A stretch of 64,000 nucleotides of DNA from Candidatus Doudnabacteria bacterium (lineage in GTDB: Bacteria; Patescibacteriota; Doudnabacteria; UBA920). Below the pieces are notes generated by a model. That model ran no database searches, was not told the DNA's origin, and saw only the letters and a list, made by a program, of their open reading frames with translations. Positions within the stretch are counted from its first letter, which is position 1. Each line of letters begins with the position of its first letter. The translations under genes were made by a program, and so were the position numbers. Below are positions 1,849-61,208 of this stretch, piece after piece. Where the stretch lies: NCBI GenBank assembly GCA_963837465.1, contig CAWINB010000004.1, positions 138,853-202,852 of the forward strand, read 5' to 3'.

Positions 1849-2175
1849 GTGGAGTTTAGTATATACAATATTGATATGACTGATCCCGAATTGCCAGAAC
1901 CCATAGCCTTTGAATGGGATGAGCATAACAGGACAAAAATTCGGCTTAGGCACAACATCACATTGGAAGAAGCCGAACAGGCTTTTTTTAACTCTCGAAA
2001 GATAATTGTTGACCAAAAACACAGCGCCGCGGAACAGAGATATCAATTATTGGGAATTAATAATGCGGACAAAATTTTATTCATTGTTTTTACTATTCGG
2101 CAGCGAAAAATCAGGATAATTTCGGCACGCAACGCCAGTAAAAAAGAAAGGGGCGGTTATGGCAAAAAAACTTAA
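1849..2175 (+). CDS. brnT: BrnT-family ribonuclease toxin (DUF497)
   Basis: 108 aa; FEWDEHN...RIISARNASKKE pattern of BrnT/DUF497; overlaps the downstream antitoxin gene by 17 nt. Confidence 0.75.
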   Translation: MEFSIYNIDMTDPELPEPIAFEWDEHNRTKIRLRHNITLEEAEQAFFNSRKIIVDQKHSAAEQRYQLLGINNADKILFIVFTIRQRKIRIISARNASKKERGGYGKKT

Positions 2176-2437
2176 AAAAATCCCAAAATTTAAAAACGAA
2201 GACGAAGAGGCGGAATTTTGGAACACTCACGACTCTACGGCTTATTTTGACTGGTCAAAAGCGCAAAATGTAATTTTTCCCAACCTCAAACCCACCTCAA
2301 CTTCCATCTCCATAAGGATACCCAACTACCTGTTGGCCCGGCTAAAACAACGCGCCAACTCGCTGAACATCCCCTACCAAACCTTAATGAAACAATCCAT
2401 AGCCAAAGAAGTCGCCAAAAAACCTTACGAGGCTTAA
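2159..2437 (+). CDS. brnA: BrnA-family antitoxin (CopG-like)
   Basis: 92 aa; C-terminal IRIPNYLLARLKQRANSLNIPYQTLMKQ block typical of BrnA; overlapping gene pair with BrnT. Confidence 0.7.
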   Translation: MAKKLKKIPKFKNEDEEAEFWNTHDSTAYFDWSKAQNVIFPNLKPTSTSISIRIPNYLLARLKQRANSLNIPYQTLMKQSIAKEVAKKPYEA

Positions 2438-5847: not shown

Positions 5848-5883
5848 ATTTCCGCCAGAGGCGGATCCGCCTCTGGCGGAAAT
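5848..5883. repeat. perfect 36 bp palindrome centred on GGATCC (copy 1 of 2)
   Basis: atttccgccagaggcgga|tccgcctctggcggaaat; the left half is the exact reverse complement of the right half; second near-identical copy at 43111-43146. Confidence 0.9.
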
Positions 5884-5893
5884 CGTCAATCAT

Positions 5894-6328
5894 ATGAAAG
5901 TAGTAGCCATATCCGGAGGATTCGATCCTGTACATATAGGTCATGTGGAAATGATGAAGGAAGCCAAAGAACTTGGCGACAGACTGGTCGTGATTATAAA
6001 TAACGACAATTGGCTTACGCTAAAAAAAGGGTTCGTTTTTATGCCGGAGCAAGAGCGGGCCGAAATAATTAAAGCAATAAGGTACGTGGATGATGTAATA
6101 ATCACCAAGCACGAACCGGGCACCAAAGATATCTCTATTTGCAGAGAGTTGGAAGAGTTGAAACCCGACATCTTCGCCAACGGCGGCGACCGAAAGCCGG
6201 ACGGCGACCCTATCCCCGAAGTGGAGCTTTGCCAACGCTTAGGCATAGAGCTGGTTTACAACGTCGGCCACAGCGGCAAAATCCAAAGCTCCAGCGAACT
6301 GGTAAAAAAAGCCGCGAAAATGAAATAA
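5894..6328 (+). CDS. cytidylyl/adenylyltransferase-like nucleotidyltransferase (HldE domain II / TagD-like)
   Basis: 144 aa; N-terminal ISGGFDPVHIGH (HxGH nucleotidyltransferase motif). Confidence 0.65.
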   Translation: MKVVAISGGFDPVHIGHVEMMKEAKELGDRLVVIINNDNWLTLKKGFVFMPEQERAEIIKAIRYVDDVIITKHEPGTKDISICRELEELKPDIFANGGDRKPDGDPIPEVELCQRLGIELVYNVGHSGKIQSSSELVKKAAKMK

Positions 6329-6344
6329 CAGGCTTGTTAAGTTA

Positions 6345-6375
6345 AAATACCCTTATGTTTAAGGGTATTTTTGTT
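6345..6375 (+). terminator. intrinsic terminator
   Basis: hairpin aaataccctta-tgtt-taagggtattt followed by TTTTG, 17 nt after the stop at 6328. Confidence 0.65.
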
Positions 6376-6389
6376 AGAAAATTTAACTA

Positions 6390-6418
6390 TTGACAAACCA
6401 TATGCTTTGTAGTAATAT
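6390..6418 (+). promoter_or_regulatory. sigma70-like promoter (TTGACA-17-TAATAT)
   Basis: ttgaca at 6390-6395, 17 nt spacer, taatat at 6413-6418; would drive a ~170 nt leader before the brnT-like gene. Confidence 0.5.
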
Positions 6419-6424
6419 ATTTAT

Positions 6425-6586
6425 GGGCCTGTTGCCAAATGGGCTTTTGAGGTAAAAATTAAGAATTTTGAGGCAGTCGGTCAAAACAAATTTTGACGTT
6501 TAACTTTTAGTTAAGCTGATAAATTTTTTTGGTCGAATGACCAAAATTATGAATTTTTAACCAAAATGACATTTGGCAACAGGCCC
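6425..6586. repeat. structured leader element A bounded by a 17 bp perfect inverted repeat
   Basis: gggcctgttgccaaatg (6425-6441) and catttggcaacaggccc (6570-6586) flank a ~110 nt core homologous to 6860-7000; the 3' arm ends 5 nt before the ATG at 6592. Confidence 0.7.
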
Positions 6587-6591
6587 TTTAT

Positions 6592-6822
6592 ATGAAACCT
6601 TTTGCTTGGGACCAAAATAAAAACAATCTGCTTAAAACCACAAGAGGGGTAGGTTTTGAAGATGTCAGGACAGCGATTTTAGATAAAAAGGTTCTTGATG
6701 ACTTCCCTAATCCCCACCCCGGCAGATACCCGGGCCAGAGAATGACCGTAGTAGAAATTAATAACTACGCCTATTTAATCCCTTATGTTGAAAACGAGAA
6801 TATAATTTTTTTAAAACAATAA
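6592..6822 (+). CDS. BrnT-like toxin (DUF497), short form
   Basis: 76 aa; FAWDQNKNN...GVGFEDV...NIIFLK resembles the BrnT/DUF497 N-terminal and core blocks; C-terminus shorter than copy 1. Confidence 0.5.
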   Translation: MKPFAWDQNKNNLLKTTRGVGFEDVRTAILDKKVLDDFPNPHPGRYPGQRMTVVEINNYAYLIPYVENENIIFLKQ

Positions 6823-6859
6823 TCCCGAGCGGGAAAGCCACTAAAAAATATCTAAGAAG

Positions 6860-7000
6860 ATGTTTAAAAAGTGCTTTGAAGGCGAAATTTCAGAATTTTG
6901 AGTGGATTGGCAGAAATAATTTTTGACGTTTAGCCTAAAGCTAAGCGGATAAAATTTTTCTGACAAGACGCCAAAATTATGAAATTGCGGCCCAAATGAC
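6860..7000. repeat. structured leader element B (paralog of element A)
   Basis: ~75 percent identity to 6455-6575; conserved blocks gaattttgag, tttgacgttta, ccaaaattatgaa, aaatgac. Confidence 0.7.
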
Positions 7001-7035
7001 TTTTTAAACAGCTTCTAAGGAAAGGAGAATAATAT

Positions 7036-7407
7036 ATGGATCCTAAATACAAAAAAACTGATTTCGGTTACGAACTCGACGACTACGAAGCGGAGCTTGA
7101 GGAAGCTTTTGACAAAGGCGAGTTTAAACGTGCGCCCGATTTTGAGGAACAGAAAAGAAAGCTCATGGCTGCGGCCAGGGCAACTATGGAAAAAACAAAA
7201 AATATCAACATTCGCATTTCACAAGGCGATCTTTTTGATATCCAAGACAAAGCAAGGGAGCAGGGCATCCCTTACCAAACCCTAATATCTTCACTCATCC
7301 ACCAATATTCCAGAAATAAAATAGACTATAACGTTTTAAGGGAACCCGGCAAACCCTACCGGACTTTTACCCCAAAACCGGCCAAAACCAAAAAGAGCGG
7401 CAAATAG
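7036..7407 (+). CDS. BrnA-like antitoxin (CopG/RHH-like)
   Basis: 123 aa; NINIRISQGDLFDIQDKAREQGIPYQTLISSLIHQY matches the BrnA C-terminal block; paralog of brnA at 2159-2437; RBS aaaggag upstream. Confidence 0.6.
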   Translation: MDPKYKKTDFGYELDDYEAELEEAFDKGEFKRAPDFEEQKRKLMAAARATMEKTKNINIRISQGDLFDIQDKAREQGIPYQTLISSLIHQYSRNKIDYNVLREPGKPYRTFTPKPAKTKKSGK

Positions 7408-7420
7408 CCGCTCTTTTTGA
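7394..7420 (+). terminator. intrinsic terminator overlapping the brnA-like stop codon
   Basis: agagcggc-aaata-gccgctct then TTTTTG. Confidence 0.55.
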
Positions 7421-7563
7421 TTTGACTTAATTTTCGCAAAGCTGTACTTTTAAGTAAAGTTATGTCCTCAATTAAGTTAAGATATAAATTCATCAGCTCC
7501 GTGTGGTGGAACCTGCGCCTTTCGCAAAGCTGATTTGAACGTGTCTAAATTTTAAGATTTAGC

Positions 7564-18239: not shown

Positions 18240-18420
18240 ATCTGCTATACTAAGTATAGAAAAGTTAGTTCTTCATTCGAAGAAACCAAAATAAAAAACA
18301 AATCAATAGTTTTTAATTGCCTTATCGTGAGATAATGCTTATATTGCCCTTACTTTTAGGGCGACGGGTCGCAAGGTTTGCTTGCGGCTCACAAAAAACT
18401 TCTTTTGGCTTTTCGAGAAT

Positions 18421-18477
18421 AACCCCTTTTACCAAACAGGCCCGACGGCCTTGGTAAATTAAGGGGTTTTTCTTTTG
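18421..18477 (+). terminator. strong extended intrinsic terminator
   Basis: long imperfect hairpin aacccctttt-accaa...ttggtaaatt-aaggggtt then TTTTCTTTTG; 180 nt downstream of the trmB-2 stop. Confidence 0.6.
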
Positions 18478-18520
18478 TTGGATTTAGTGTAAAATAGGAA
18501 AGCTTAATAAATTTTATGCT

Positions 18521-18560
18521 GATTTACAGATTATCTGATTTTACAGATAATCTGTAAATC
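18521..18560. promoter_or_regulatory. 40 bp operator-like palindrome (17 bp arms, 6 bp spacer)
   Basis: gatttacagattatctg-atttta-cagataatctgtaaatc; arms are perfect reverse complements; 16 nt upstream of the ATG at 18576. Confidence 0.55.
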
Positions 18561-18575
18561 GGAATCAATATCTAT

Positions 18576-18854
18576 ATGGATCAAGACGATATCAAAACTT
18601 TGTTTGACGACAAATACAAAAAACTGCTTGGCCAGTCCTACGAGGAATGGTCGGAAAACGGCCCGCAAAACGAAACCGAAGCCTACGCGCGCCTGCAGGA
18701 AATTGACGACGAGTTAAGGGAAAGCCACGACGAATGGTATGAAGCCGAAGGCGATAAAAAAGAAGAGCTGGAAGAATACCGCGACAAGCTGAAAGCGGAA
18801 TATGATTTCATAGAAGCGGCTTTTGGGCTGGAGGCTCCGGATAAGAATTGGTAG
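18576..18854 (+). CDS. small acidic hypothetical protein
   Basis: 92 aa, strongly acidic, predicted helical; followed by a terminator. Confidence 0.45.
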   Translation: MDQDDIKTLFDDKYKKLLGQSYEEWSENGPQNETEAYARLQEIDDELRESHDEWYEAEGDKKEELEEYRDKLKAEYDFIEAAFGLEAPDKNW

Positions 18855-22989: not shown

Positions 22990-23310
22990 GATTATAATAT
23001 GATAGCTTGGTTGGTTAATAATTTTTCGCCCAAAATACGCTCTTTGGCCAAACCCTTGCTAAAAATTTTTCCGCTTAGCTTTAGTTAAACATCAAAATTT
23101 TTCAACCACTGTGCACTGGAAGCGCGCAGACTGCTCGCCGACTGGAAGTCGAGAACAGCGGAGGAATTATCTATTAATTTTTACTGAAGTGACCGCCTGA
23201 AGGCGTGGGAACTCACCGCCCCAAATGGAGGCCTTAGACCGCGGTTTTGTCTCAAATATCATATTTTGCATCAAAAAATTATTAACCAACCAAGCTATGC
23301 CATTATAGCA
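22990..23310. repeat. ~35 bp inverted repeat pair (26 bp perfect core) flanking ~250 bp
   Basis: tataat...atagcttggttggttaataattttt at 22993-23025; its reverse complement aaaaattattaaccaaccaagctat...attata at 23273-23310. Confidence 0.8.
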
Positions 23311-37078: not shown

Positions 37079-37669
37079 ATGATCATTTTACAGAATTTTG
37101 TCGCCGGTCTGTCCTACTATCGCTATGTGCTGGCGTTTTTTTTGGCCATTGTGGAAGGGCCGATGGTCATGGTGGCCAGCGGCATTTTGCTGCGCCTGCG
37201 GTTTTTTTATTTTTTACCCATTTATCTTTGCCTGATGCTGGGGGATTTTGTGGCCGATCTGGCTTGGTACGGCGTGGGATATTACGGCGGCCGCGGTTTT
37301 GTGGAGCGCTTTGGAAAATATTTCAGCCTGACTCCCGAAGTCTTGGAAAAAATCGAGCATTTTTTTAAAAAGCACCAGGATAAAATTTTATTTATTTCCA
37401 AAATTACCATGGGTTTTGGTTTTGCCCTGGCCACTTTGGTTACCGCGGGTTTGGTCAGGATAAATTTTAAAAAATACGCCCTGTTTAATTTTTTAGGGGG
37501 ATTTATCTGGACCGGCATCCTCGTTGGCCTGGGATATTTTTTTGGAAACCTTTACGCTTTGCTTAATAAAGGATTTAAAGCTGTTTTTATAATCGGCTTG
37601 GTGGTTTTTATGCTGGCGTTGCTTTATGGCGGCGGCCGTTATTTTAAGACTTTGTTATTAAAAAAGTAA
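37079..37669 (+). CDS. DedA/TVP38-family membrane protein
   Basis: 196 aa; 4-5 TM helices; FLAIVEGP..VMVASG block typical of DedA. Confidence 0.75.
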   Translation: MIILQNFVAGLSYYRYVLAFFLAIVEGPMVMVASGILLRLRFFYFLPIYLCLMLGDFVADLAWYGVGYYGGRGFVERFGKYFSLTPEVLEKIEHFFKKHQDKILFISKITMGFGFALATLVTAGLVRINFKKYALFNFLGGFIWTGILVGLGYFFGNLYALLNKGFKAVFIIGLVVFMLALLYGGGRYFKTLLLKK

Positions 37670-37672
37670 ACC

Positions 37673-38398
37673 ATGATTTCATTTATAATCCCGACGTTGC
37701 AGGAGGAAAAAGTCATGGAAAAGATTTTAAAAAATCTTAGGCAAATTTCCTCCTTTGATTATGAAATTATTGTTTCCGACGGCGGCAGTAAGGATAAAAC
37801 CCGGGAAATTGCTTCCGGCTATGCCGACAAAGTGGTTGTTTACAGCGGAACAAAGCGTCAAACCATTGGACAGGCCAAGAATTTAGGCGCGAAACAGGCG
37901 GCGGGAGAATTTTTGGTGTTTTTGGACGCGGATATTTATGTGCCGGAGCCGGATAAATTTTTTGCCCGCGCCCTTAAGCACTTTGAAGGCGACGGCAGGC
38001 TTGTGGCTTTAAGCGGCTGGCTGAGAGTTTTTCCGGAAATGGAAACCTTTGGCGACAAAATCGGTTACGGTATTTTGACCAATTGGTCGCTGGTGGTAAA
38101 TAACAATATTTTAAGAACCGGCGCCGGATGCGGCGAATTTGCCATGATACGAGCCAGGGACTTTAATAAAGTCGGCGGCTACAGGGAAGATTTGGCCGTG
38201 GACGAAGACCAGGACCTGCCCCGGCGTCTGGTTAAAATCGGCCGCACCAAAACCGATCCCCAGCTTTTGCTTTTTCATACCGGCCGCCGCCCCCACGCCA
38301 TAGGCTGGCCCAGGCTTTTGTGGCAATGGACCACCAACTGGCTGTCCCTGGTTTTATTGAATCACTCCGCGGATACGGAGTGGAAGGTTATAAGGTAG
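37673..38398 (+). CDS. family 2 glycosyltransferase
   Basis: 241 aa; ISFIIPTLQEE...YEIIVSDGGSKD...FLDAD (DxD) GT2 signature. Confidence 0.8.
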   Translation: MISFIIPTLQEEKVMEKILKNLRQISSFDYEIIVSDGGSKDKTREIASGYADKVVVYSGTKRQTIGQAKNLGAKQAAGEFLVFLDADIYVPEPDKFFARALKHFEGDGRLVALSGWLRVFPEMETFGDKIGYGILTNWSLVVNNNILRTGAGCGEFAMIRARDFNKVGGYREDLAVDEDQDLPRRLVKIGRTKTDPQLLLFHTGRRPHAIGWPRLLWQWTTNWLSLVLLNHSADTEWKVIR

Positions 38399-42891: not shown

Positions 42892-43866
42892 TTGTTTCAA
42901 TGGTATCTCTTTACAAAATTCCCAAAACCCGCCAAACTTATAGATATGTTACTGGAAATTCCAAAAAATTTTTCGGACTTTGAGTTGATAGACACCGGCG
43001 ATGGTTACAGGCTGGAGCGCTGGGGGCAGGTTATTTTGGCGCGGCCGGATCCGCAAATTATTTGGCCACGATCACTACCGAGCGACCAGTGGAATTCCGC
43101 CTGGGCGGTTTTTTCCGCCGGAGGCGGATCCGCCTTTGGCGGAAAAAATAAAGCCGCCGGAGAAAAAGGCCGATGGGAAATAAAAAAACCAATGCCAAAC
43201 CCTTGGATTGTAAATTTTGATGATGTGAAATTTTTACTCAAGCTCTCTCCGTTTAAGCATACGGGCTTGTTCGCGGAGCAGGCCGCCCAATGGGAGTGGA
43301 TGTCGTTAAGGATAAAAGATTCCTCCTTCACTAAAGTTTCGGCGGACAAGAAAGGATTAAGGATACTAAACCTCTTTGCTTACACCGGCGGCGCGACAAT
43401 GGTTTTGGCCAAGGCCGGCTGGCGTGTTACGCATGTGGATGCTTCCAAGCCGGCTATAACCTGGGCCAATGAAAATCATAAATTAAATAACTTGCCGGCT
43501 GACTCTGTCCGCTGGATTTTGGACGACGCGGCAAAATTTGTCGGCCGGGAACTAAAAAGAGGTGCCAAGTATGATGCCATAATTATGGATCCTCCCGCTT
43601 TTGGTCATTCGCCCACAGGCAAGATTTGGAAATTTAACAATGACCTGCCGGGCTTGCTTGCCGACTGCGTTTCCCTGCTGTCGCCCGAAGCTAAATTTTT
43701 AATCATCAACGGCTACGCCACAAATTCCTCGGCCTTGTCTTTAAATAATTTATTGGAAGATGTAATTGCCGCCAAAGACGGTAAGATAGAATTTGGTGAG
43801 TTATGCCTAAAGCAACAATCCGAACGAATGATATCAACCGGAATATTCACCCGATGGAGTATTTAG
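42892..43866 (+). CDS. class I SAM-dependent rRNA methyltransferase (RlmI/RlmK-like)
   Basis: 324 aa; SAM-binding block NLFAYTGGATMVLAKAGWRVTHVDASK; IIMDPPAFG motif; contains an in-frame palindromic insertion (see repeat 43111-43146). Confidence 0.75.
   Translation: MFQWYLFTKFPKPAKLIDMLLEIPKNFSDFELIDTGDGYRLERWGQVILARPDPQIIWPRSLPSDQWNSAWAVFSAGGGSAFGGKNKAAGEKGRWEIKKPMPNPWIVNFDDVKFLLKLSPFKHTGLFAEQAAQWEWMSLRIKDSSFTKVSADKKGLRILNLFAYTGGATMVLAKAGWRVTHVDASKPAITWANENHKLNNLPADSVRWILDDAAKFVGRELKRGAKYDAIIMDPPAFGHSPTGKIWKFNNDLPGLLADCVSLLSPEAKFLIINGYATNSSALSLNNLLEDVIAAKDGKIEFGELCLKQQSERMISTGIFTRWSI
43111..43146. repeat. 36 bp GGATCC-centred palindrome (copy 2 of 2), inside the methyltransferase CDS
   Basis: ttttccgccggaggcgga|tccgcctttggcggaaaa; 32/36 identical to the 5848-5883 copy; encodes the Gly-rich segment FSAGGGSAFGGK in frame. 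Confidence 0.85.
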
Positions 43867-55517: not shown

Positions 55518-55792
55518 AAATTTATCTTAAAACCTGTTTTAAAAATACTTCGGGCCGCAATTTATTTTTTTAAACAGGTTTTTAATAATAATCTTTTCAT
55601 AGTATAGCACTTAAATAAAAGGAGAAAATTATTAAGTTATAAACAAGTATTATTTTATATCTTGTGGATAATTGGTTATAAATAAGCCAAAAGCTAATAA
55701 ATATGGCTTATTGACATATAGTGAACGTTCGTTTTATTATCAGAGTAAGGATTAATATTTATGGAAAACAAAATAATTAACAAGGATCTAAA

Positions 55793-57481: not shown

Positions 57482-57531
57482 AGGATTTTTAAAATAGGTT
57501 CCAGCAGATTTTTATATTCAGGATCCCTTTT

Positions 57532-60945: not shown

Positions 60946-61208
60946 AGTTATGTTTTTAATTTTTAAATAAAGGCTTGTTTAATAAATTATTTTTTGCAGC
61001 TCAATTCCTGAAATTGCGGCCAAAATAAATTTTAGATTTTTGTATCAGATCCTAAATGTACGGGATAAATTTACAAATAGTATAGCATATTTTATAAAGA
61101 AAGCGAAATTTTTTTGGCCACTTCAGGTATCGCTCAAGGTTGCCGGTTGATTGGCTGGCCTTATTTTAACAAGTTGGAACTGAATTAGCTAAAATTATAA
61201 GATAGTTG

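Follow-up and report, generated by a model that had tools for sequence, protein, structure and literature searches.

Two insertions of a hairpin-forming MITE family of Patescibacteria have probably split a brnT/brnA-like toxin-antitoxin operon

Among the dispersed repeats of bacteria, those of the ERIC/IRU and RUP/BOX type are imperfect palindromes over their whole length, lying between genes or transcribed, in which compensatory changes keep the hairpin; the enterobacterial ERIC repeats offer a precedent for a hairpin that alters the expression or stability of a transcript. The inverted repeat of Tn3 reads GGGGTCTG, and the Tn3-derived TIMEs duplicate 5 bp of AT-rich targets. The bcr1 repeat was reportedly predicted by Okstad in 2004 to fold as RNA. 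It is dispersed through the Bacillus cereus group, measures ~155 bp and has a TTTAT motif at its insertion site (PMC6542083). The Correia elements of Neisseria have a conserved core besides their inverted repeats, are bound by IHF and RNase III, create promoters and alter the expression of adjacent genes (PMC2649163). Here we describe a family of the same general kind from Patescibacteria, the Candidate Phyla Radiation (CPR), starting from two of its members, copies A and B, which lie next to a brnT/brnA-like toxin-antitoxin gene pair of a Candidatus Doudnabacteria bacterium (contig CAWINB010000004.1, positions 138,853 to 202,852; this stretch of 64,000 nt, analysed as a whole, is called the window). 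We take the two copies, with a probability of about 0.88, to be independent insertions of non-autonomous MITEs (miniature inverted-repeat transposable elements) that belong to different subfamilies of one dispersed family.

Copy A (6425-6586, forward strand, 162 bp, subfamily s1) ends in perfect terminal inverted repeats of 17 bp (6425-6441 / 6570-6586, GGGCCTGTTGCCAAATG) and is flanked by TTTAT on its left (6420-6424) and on its right (6587-6591), the right duplicate standing directly 5' of the ATG of the brnT-like gene. Copy B (6857-7014, forward strand, 158 bp, s2-like) ends in imperfect inverted repeats, AAGATGTTTAAAAAG and CTTTTTAAACAGCTT, its outer repeat of 27 nt being 85% complementary and unlike that of copy A in sequence; its flanking duplicate, read like that of copy A from the sequence, is CTAAG (6852-6856 and 7015-7019) or, in an alternative reading, TAA, with an element one base longer on each side. 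The two copies share 76% identity over 113 nt (blastn, E = 4e-9), 71% over 138 nt when compared as an ungapped direct repeat, and a mean column identity of 80% when aligned with MAFFT. Each forms one single, full-length imperfect hairpin of ~160 nt, with a folding energy as RNA of -65.5 kcal/mol for copy A (z = -8.4) and -66.4 kcal/mol for copy B (z = -9.3), a stability that 0 of 200 shuffles reach; the z-scores lie between -8 and -10 across the hairpin fold tests, and the reverse strands are less stable as RNA (-57.7 kcal/mol for copy A, -53.2 for copy B). The open reading frames (ORFs) that overlap the copies are all spurious, with at most 41 aa, and Rfam returns noise only, both for the region of copies A and B searched at E up to 10 and for the whole window at gathering thresholds. 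A first-pass annotation of this DNA had reported, before each of the two genes, an element of ~120 nt with ~75 percent identity between the two, a 17-bp inverted repeat enclosing copy A, and a 3' arm of copy A ending 5 nt before the brnT start. The homology, the 17-bp repeat and the 5-nt distance are all borne out, the 5 nt being the right TTTAT duplicate; the size has to be corrected to ~160 bp for each element, and copy B is likewise closed by an outer repeat of its own.

What the site looked like without the elements can be read from locus L095 (CAZQFQ010000013.1), which is syntenic with the window over the genes for a membrane protein, a cytidylyltransferase and the brnT-like and brnA-like proteins, and which has neither element. 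There, brnT is intact (97-104 aa; ~97 aa from the promoter-proximal ATG, ending in ..FLKTMIPSGKATRKYLRKEKYGSQI) and overlaps the ATG of brnA; a toxin gene that comes first and overlaps the antitoxin gene is the arrangement expected of BrnT/BrnA. In the window, the BrnT-like toxin gene (6592-6822, forward strand) is truncated to 76 aa, its ancestral 3' end being interrupted by copy B, and the BrnA/CopG-like antitoxin gene (7036-7407, forward strand) is intact, with 123 aa as in L095 and a ribosome-binding site of its own (GGAAAGGAG). The Pfam matches of the two genes all fall below the curated cut-offs: brnT reaches 19.1 bits against BrnT_toxin (PF04365; E = 0.0016, cut-off 34.5), and brnA 17.6 bits against BrnA_antitoxin (PF14384; E = 0.005, cut-off 26.1) and 25.4 bits against CopG_antitoxin (E = 2.5e-5, cut-off 28). 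A sigma-70-like promoter of the operon, TTGACA-17-TAATAT (6390-6418, forward strand), is the best promoter-like site within 6250-7450, matching at 10 of 12 positions, and lies just 5' of copy A; its homologue in L095, TTGACA-17-TATCAT, has the brnT ATG 9 nt downstream. Copy A with its flanking TTTATs occupies the space between this promoter and the brnT ATG, where L095 has a single ATTTAT(TAT)ATG; copy B, with CTAAG on both sides, lies within the former last codons of brnT, where the empty site of L095 reads ..AAATATTTAAG|AAAGGAAAAGTATGG. With copy A and one TTTAT removed, the -10 box of the window comes to lie 6 nt from the brnT ATG, as compared to 9 nt in L095, and at such a distance of 6-9 nt the brnT mRNA would be leaderless or nearly so. 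A T7A4 run in the window gene (~6805-6815) is 1 nt shorter than its counterpart in L095 (T5A5 context), which shifts the frame into the stop at 76 aa; the difference could be a real pseudogenising deletion or an error of homopolymer sequencing or assembly.

These comparisons suggest a history in which the ancestral operon would have consisted of the promoter, a leaderless or near-leaderless brnT, and a brnA overlapping or abutting it. Copy A would have entered the TTTAT that lay between the -10 box and the start codon of brnT, so that the transcript from the 6390-6418 promoter would now begin with a hairpin of ~162-167 nt that ends 5 nt before the AUG and offers no Shine-Dalgarno sequence; leaderless initiation of the toxin should thereby be abolished. 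The insertion of copy B into the last codons of brnT would have separated it from brnA, and the frameshift in brnT would have been gained afterwards or would already have been present. The split of the gene pair and the absence of a Shine-Dalgarno sequence before brnT would thus both follow from the insertions, and the outcome would be a disarmed toxin and a surviving antitoxin.

The effect of copy A probably resembles that of a translation-sequestering leader, but as an accident that silences the toxin. That both elements instead evolved as cis-regulatory leader RNAs, controlling the translation of brnT and brnA in a deliberately split pair, was one of the two readings offered by the first-pass annotation, and it draws on their position directly upstream of the two genes in the same orientation, on the fact that the hairpin of copy A stops 5 nt short of an AUG that has no Shine-Dalgarno, on the very stable folds, and on a third copy of the window that also lies sense-oriented upstream of a gene, tyrS. 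We consider it highly improbable. The operon of L095 is intact, with overlapping genes, and free of the element; copy B lies within the ancestral reading frame of brnT; family members adjoin unrelated genes, antisense in 26 cases and sense in 14; target-site duplications and remnants speak of insertion and decay; a canonical brnTA-like pair elsewhere in the window (1849-2437) is without an element; and no Rfam family corresponds to a leader or riboswitch-like RNA of this kind. The other reading of the first-pass annotation, a MITE-like element, has fared well, being upheld by the many copies scattered over genomes, by their terminal inverted repeats and target-site duplications, and by orthologous sites that lack them.

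Several observations on the locus stand beside this argument. The second BrnT/BrnA-like pair just mentioned, recognised by eye from the translations (..FEWDEHNRTKIRLRHNITLEEAEQA), lies at 1849-2175 and 2159-2437 on the forward strand in the canonical order, the toxin gene preceding the antitoxin gene and overlapping it; neither blastn nor the covariance model of the family finds a hairpin element with it in the window. The PBP1A gene of locus L066 likewise has a -10 box close to its ATG and no Shine-Dalgarno sequence (L066:4733-4754; the corresponding brnT sites are 6413-6424 with 6592 in the window and 1031-1047 in L095), and from the spacing of these sites leaderless mRNAs would seem to be frequent in this lineage. 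DedA-like and glycosyltransferase genes, which follow brnA on its 3' side in L095 (1703-3036), are found ~30 kb away in the window (37079-38398), so the two genomes differ by a rearrangement of the region downstream of the toxin-antitoxin locus. A BrnA-based query found no relatives among metagenome contigs, and an exact-protein look-up of the upstream cytidylyltransferase returned no record.

The two copies belong to a large family. A core pattern taken from the centre common to the window copies (TTTGAYGTTTARC-N(2-7)-GYTAAGCNGAWAA), scanned against one genome per species, matches at least 106 loci, nearly all of them in metagenome-assembled genomes (MAGs) of Patescibacteria/CPR; among the matches listed, the hosts are mostly Candidatus Doudnabacteria, with Uhrbacteria and Magasanikbacteria, several bins labelled Saccharibacteria and two labelled Gammaproteobacteria, and ~25 assemblies are represented, a single MAG contributing up to 23 loci. 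Viral contigs yield 0 matches to this pattern and hence no sign of phage carriage. A covariance model (R1), based on an alignment of 56 non-redundant copies (A2), recovers ~125 distinct copies in 100 loci and scores copy A at 156.5 bits (E = 3e-28) and copy B at 155.8 bits. The elements are non-coding, of a uniform length of 160-166 bp and AT-rich (GC 0.25-0.45), and truncated, internally deleted and solo-end remnants are common. Crude ORF calls place 91 of 92 distinct copies between genes; the genes that adjoin them are unrelated to each other, and in tandem contexts the copies show no sense bias (14 sense, 26 antisense). In JBBREH01, the core-pattern scan places many copies 45-80 nt from contig ends, a placement to be expected of a near-identical repeat at which assemblies break.

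Bins labelled Gammaproteobacteria or Saccharibacteria carry the element at L047, L062 (CAZRYK01), L104 (CAZKQL01) and in many CA*01 bins, and L095, which is syntenic with the window, comes from a bin labelled 'Saccharibacteria'; the taxonomy assigned to such MAGs may be unreliable, or the bins contaminated.

The family falls into subfamilies that are defined by their arms and whose terminal inverted repeats are conserved across genomes. The s1 copies, including copy A, end in GGGWCTGTTGCCRAATG; s2, to which copy B belongs as a neighbour of the L009/L080 variant, in (T)TAGAAGCTGTCTTAAAAA, also given as (T)TAGAAGCTGTCTTAAAAATAA / AGAACCTATTTTAAAAA; s3, represented in the window by a third copy (copy C), in TAGACYTGTTGCTTAATAA; and s4, with no copy in the window, in TAGCCTTGTAGCGAATTAA. 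As the outer inverted repeats are conserved by subfamily, the repeats that seem specific to each window copy are the terminal inverted repeats of their subfamilies. In s1, exact 5-bp direct repeats flank 15 of 24 copies where 1.4 are expected, or 13 of 21 where 1.2 are expected, depending on the anchor; they are varied and mostly AT-rich (TTTAT, TTAAT, AAATA, GCGAT, ACAAA, ATAAC, GCTAC, ATGCT), with a target consensus W-T-W-A-T. Copies of s3 and s4 have A-W-T on both flanks, with the same W in 20 of 25, which from the sequences is apparently a 3-bp target duplication. A test for a 5-bp duplication shared by all subfamilies failed in s2 and in s3/s4. In L054, an s1 copy lies inside the AT-rich loop of a terminator-like hairpin, GCGCCCCAACATTTTAAAGCTAAAAAATGTTGGGGCTCGC (as compared to L101/L072), a placement that fits an AT-rich target preference near gene ends.

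In these properties the family approaches two of the known systems. Like bcr1, with which it was compared by description only, it is a dispersed non-coding repeat of about the same size (~155 bp), with TTTAT flanks in copy A and in L083 and an s1 consensus of W-T-W-A-T; it differs in its host phylum and in that the s1 targets are varied 5-mers, not only TTTAT. With the TIMEs it shares the 5-bp duplication of AT-rich targets, and the s1 termini start with GGGTCTG, like the Tn3 repeat, a likeness of 7 nt that may be due to chance; at the right position, however, the 38-bp Tn3-type repeat, inner ACGYTAAG block included, is lacking, and no Tn3-type transposase or resolvase was seen.

Presence and absence of the element at orthologous sites is not confined to the brnT/brnA locus. 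Beyond the two elements seen in the first-pass annotation, a third copy and no fewer than two remnants lie in the window, and element-free orthologous sites exist for all three copies. Copy C (23002-23298, reverse strand, s3) lies in the divergent intergenic region between tyrS and the PBP1A gene, sense-oriented upstream of tyrS; it was first found as a central motif (~23061-23103, minus strand) in a blastn search of copies A and B against the window, scores 58 bits with the covariance model, and has perfect outer inverted repeats of 25 bp and a core at 23067-23096. Its 5' arm contains a unique GC-rich insertion of ~130 nt (~23111-23240) with several short hairpins, for which neither the window nor the fetched loci hold a second copy and which has no Rfam match. 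In L066, the tyrS-PBP1A intergenic region measures 80 nt and has no element, as compared to 391 nt in the window. Conversely, elements fill L066:7593-7752 and L005:2942-3113 where the window is empty (26229 onwards, after the PBP1A stop, and 18240-18575, upstream of the ortholog of ORF 18576-18854, respectively), and further filled and empty pairs, which bear out the boundaries of the elements, are L054 against L101 and L072, L050 against L078, and L037 against L060; insertion sites therefore vary between species in both directions. The remnants in the window comprise an internally deleted s2-type element, with both termini and the 3' arm and without a core (55518-55590, reverse strand, covariance-model E about 0.2), and a solo s2-type 3'-terminal fragment, AGGATTTTTAAAATAGGTTCC (57482-57503, forward strand); a degenerate, centrally deleted remnant is possible at 60966-61051 (forward strand), where the match is weak (21 bits, E = 0.097). 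The s2-type termini that lie 1.97 kb apart (55528 / 57482) were considered as the ends of an autonomous element and rejected, being two unrelated remnants that flank ordinary genes. With a size under ~600 bp, a lack of coding capacity, shared terminal inverted repeats, target-site duplication, and dispersed copies that are present or absent at orthologous sites, the elements have the features by which MITEs are recognised, apart from a cognate autonomous element, of which the window and 665 kb of flanks gave no trace.

Small GC-rich palindromes of the form CCGCC-N3-GGCGG, a second repeat family, arranged in back-to-back pairs (5852-5879 and 43115-43142 in the window), also occur in these genomes; the window has 6 matches, against 0.5 expected, and such mini-hairpins are nested in MITE copies of other MAGs (L024:5196-5398, L050:1601-1798, L018:1376-1556, L094).

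The hairpin is maintained by compensatory changes. In alignment A2, RNAalifold predicts 38 pairs, of which 26 show compensatory double changes; 93.6% of the cells are paired, as compared to 73.9% in column shuffles and 39-56% when the 3' partners are slid, and the covariation score is 0.533, against 0.171 and 0.08-0.14, respectively. The replacement of an A-T by a G-C pair between copies A and B (GTTTAAC..GTTAAGC and GTTTAGC..GCTAAGC), noticed in the first-pass annotation, is present and recurs throughout the family, 31 copies having A-U, 24 G-C and 1 A.C in the corresponding columns of A2 (88:98); a further case of A.C is copy C. With further covarying copies recovered by the covariance model and with folds far more stable than shuffles, the structure claimed in that annotation stands, and only its assignment to the regulation of brnTA falls. 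Such compensation is also found in MITEs that are palindromic over their whole length (Correia, ERIC) and is no proof of an RNA function. In this respect the family resembles ERIC/IRU and RUP/BOX, with which it has no sequence relation; it differs from them in having several terminal-repeat subfamilies and in conserving its apex, not its ends.

This apical core, with its most conserved columns in A2, spans ~45 nt with the consensus AAAT-TTTGAYG-TTTARC-loop-GYTAAGC-NGAWAA-ATTTTT; by pattern match it lies at 6492-6522 in copy A (TTTGACGTTTAAC-TTTTA-GTTAAGCTGATAA) and at 6922-6952 in copy B (TTTGACGTTTAGC-CTAAA-GCTAAGCGGATAA), on the forward strand in both. It is ~90% identical across subfamilies whose arms are unalignable and whose duplications differ in length. 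This conservation is partly one of ascertainment, as the scan required the core, but not only so, because the pattern played no part in the discovery of the three window copies, and because 13 copies found by the covariance model alone keep the core, with compensatory stem changes (GTTTACC..GGTAAGC, GTTTAAT..ATTAAGC), an invariant U.G wobble and opposed GA dinucleotides. Most likely, though this is a guess, the core is a site needed for the element's own propagation or processing, be it protein-binding, architectural, or a hairpin signal in the single strand. Other interpretations of the core were dropped: as a promoter with TTGAYG as -35 box, it has only -10-like hexamers 19-21 nt away, and inverton, attC, dif/Xer, DnaA-box, IHF and k-turn readings fail on sequence or geometry, the k-turn for want of a 3-nt bulge. 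In integron attC sites the pattern of a conserved centre and variable ends is reversed, the outer R''/R' (RYYYAAC / GTTRRRY) being conserved and the centre variable, and such sites follow gene cassettes next to intI; here the flanking genes are housekeeping ones.

A tentative extension of this idea, which we regard as possible but unlikely, is that the elements move as MITEs and carry, on several transposon 'chassis', an apical module of ~45 nt (an A/U helix, opposed GA/GA, a 7-bp stem and the invariant U.G wobble) that is a functional signal on one strand, as RNA or as single-stranded DNA (ssDNA). The module may serve as a site for protein binding or for processing by RNase III, altering the expression or stability of host transcripts and so rewiring the expression of neighbouring genes, or as a hairpin recognised in an unusual route of transposition. 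Besides the persistence of the core despite unalignable arms, and with compensatory changes in the 13 copies, strand asymmetry points this way: all of 63 distinct copies are more stable on the strand defined by the core (on average -67.2 against -54.0 kcal/mol), 56 of the 63 still favour that strand when the core is swapped for a tetraloop and the arms alone decide, and the covariance model scores 156 bits on the forward strand of the window against 65-79 bits on the reverse. Correia elements set a precedent with their conserved core, IHF and RNase III binding, and promoter creation (PMC2649163). Against this, the copies show no bias towards the sense strand of adjacent genes and so are not, as a rule, co-transcribed in their favoured orientation; a promoter scan and inspection gave no convincing internal promoter; the excess of G.U pairs in the arms, outside the core, is modest (141 against 97 pairs; one strand is favoured by 33 copies, the opposite one by 19); the copies lack phylogenetic independence; at the covarying apical pair, both A.C intermediates occur on what is the 'wrong' strand for RNA; and the copy at L057:1317 has lost the core entirely.

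The likeness to Correia elements extends to a size of ~100-160 bp, terminal inverted repeats, a conserved central core, many intergenic copies and long hairpins when transcribed. Correia elements, however, duplicate TA, whereas the duplications of the CPR family are 5 bp long in s1 and copy B and apparently 3 bp long in s3/s4; the two are unrelated in sequence, the host phylum is another, and the IHF consensus WATCAANNNNTTR has no match in the core by inspection. With duplications of 5 or 3 bp and no IHF match, the elements fall outside the Correia (CREE) family.

Movement of the MITEs presumably depends on a transposase of the DDE type acting in trans, because staggered cuts would give the duplications. 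Transfer as ssDNA hairpins by an HUH enzyme (RAYT/TnpA), as for REP/BIME-like or IS200/IS605-type elements, would accommodate a whole-length hairpin that is also stable as ssDNA (-45.8 kcal/mol, z = -9.1 for copy A), the strand-asymmetric folding, the conserved apical hairpin and the small GC-rich REP-like palindromes of these genomes; it is nevertheless a very unlikely mechanism, since HUH transposition leaves no target duplication and s1 has clean and varied ones of 5 bp (GCGAT, ACAAA, ATAAC, TTTAT), the termini are true inverted repeats, and no RAYT/TnpA gene was seen nearby. Membership in either of these groups, which are marked by GC-rich palindromes of 20-40 nt or subterminal hairpins and by a linked Y1/HUH transposase, was rejected on the same grounds, the elements having duplications, an AT-rich length of 162 bp and no Y1/HUH gene in sight.

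Some of the evidence runs counter to two MITE insertions that disarmed a toxin. Neither the window nor ~665 kb of fetched CPR DNA yielded an autonomous element or a transposase whose termini match, and no transposase candidate came from a search for larger elements with the same termini, from one for solo termini beside large ORFs, or from one for ORFs in several copies among 603. Clear target duplications are seen only in s1 and copy B, those of s3/s4 seem to be of 3 bp and most s2 copies give none that is clear, which is odd for a single family. The centre is more conserved than the termini, the reverse of what is expected of a simple MITE. The inactivation of brnT, finally, depends on one difference in homopolymer length, which could be a sequencing error, and on the leaderless start deduced from the spacing of promoter and ATG.

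Taken as MITE insertions, copies A and B are no longer a pair of leader RNAs but members of a mobile hairpin family that twice entered a toxin-antitoxin operon and apparently disarmed its toxin. For CPR/Patescibacteria, a MITE family is thereby defined, together with its covariance model, its subfamilies, their target duplications and a set of empty sites; in the literature searched, no description of MITEs in these bacteria was found, which is no proof of novelty. The elements break metagenome assemblies, their very strong covariation means that they can be mistaken for structured non-coding RNAs, and they may alter the expression of adjacent genes in genomes that seem to hold many leaderless transcripts. 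Once explained, the locus is an ordinary one; the conservation of one apical module on different terminal-repeat chassis, together with the strand-biased folding, makes a modest but testable lead. If the module does act as a signal of its own, tiny genomes with almost no known RNA regulators would harbour a mobile RNA or ssDNA element that is widespread and selected for a function of its own.

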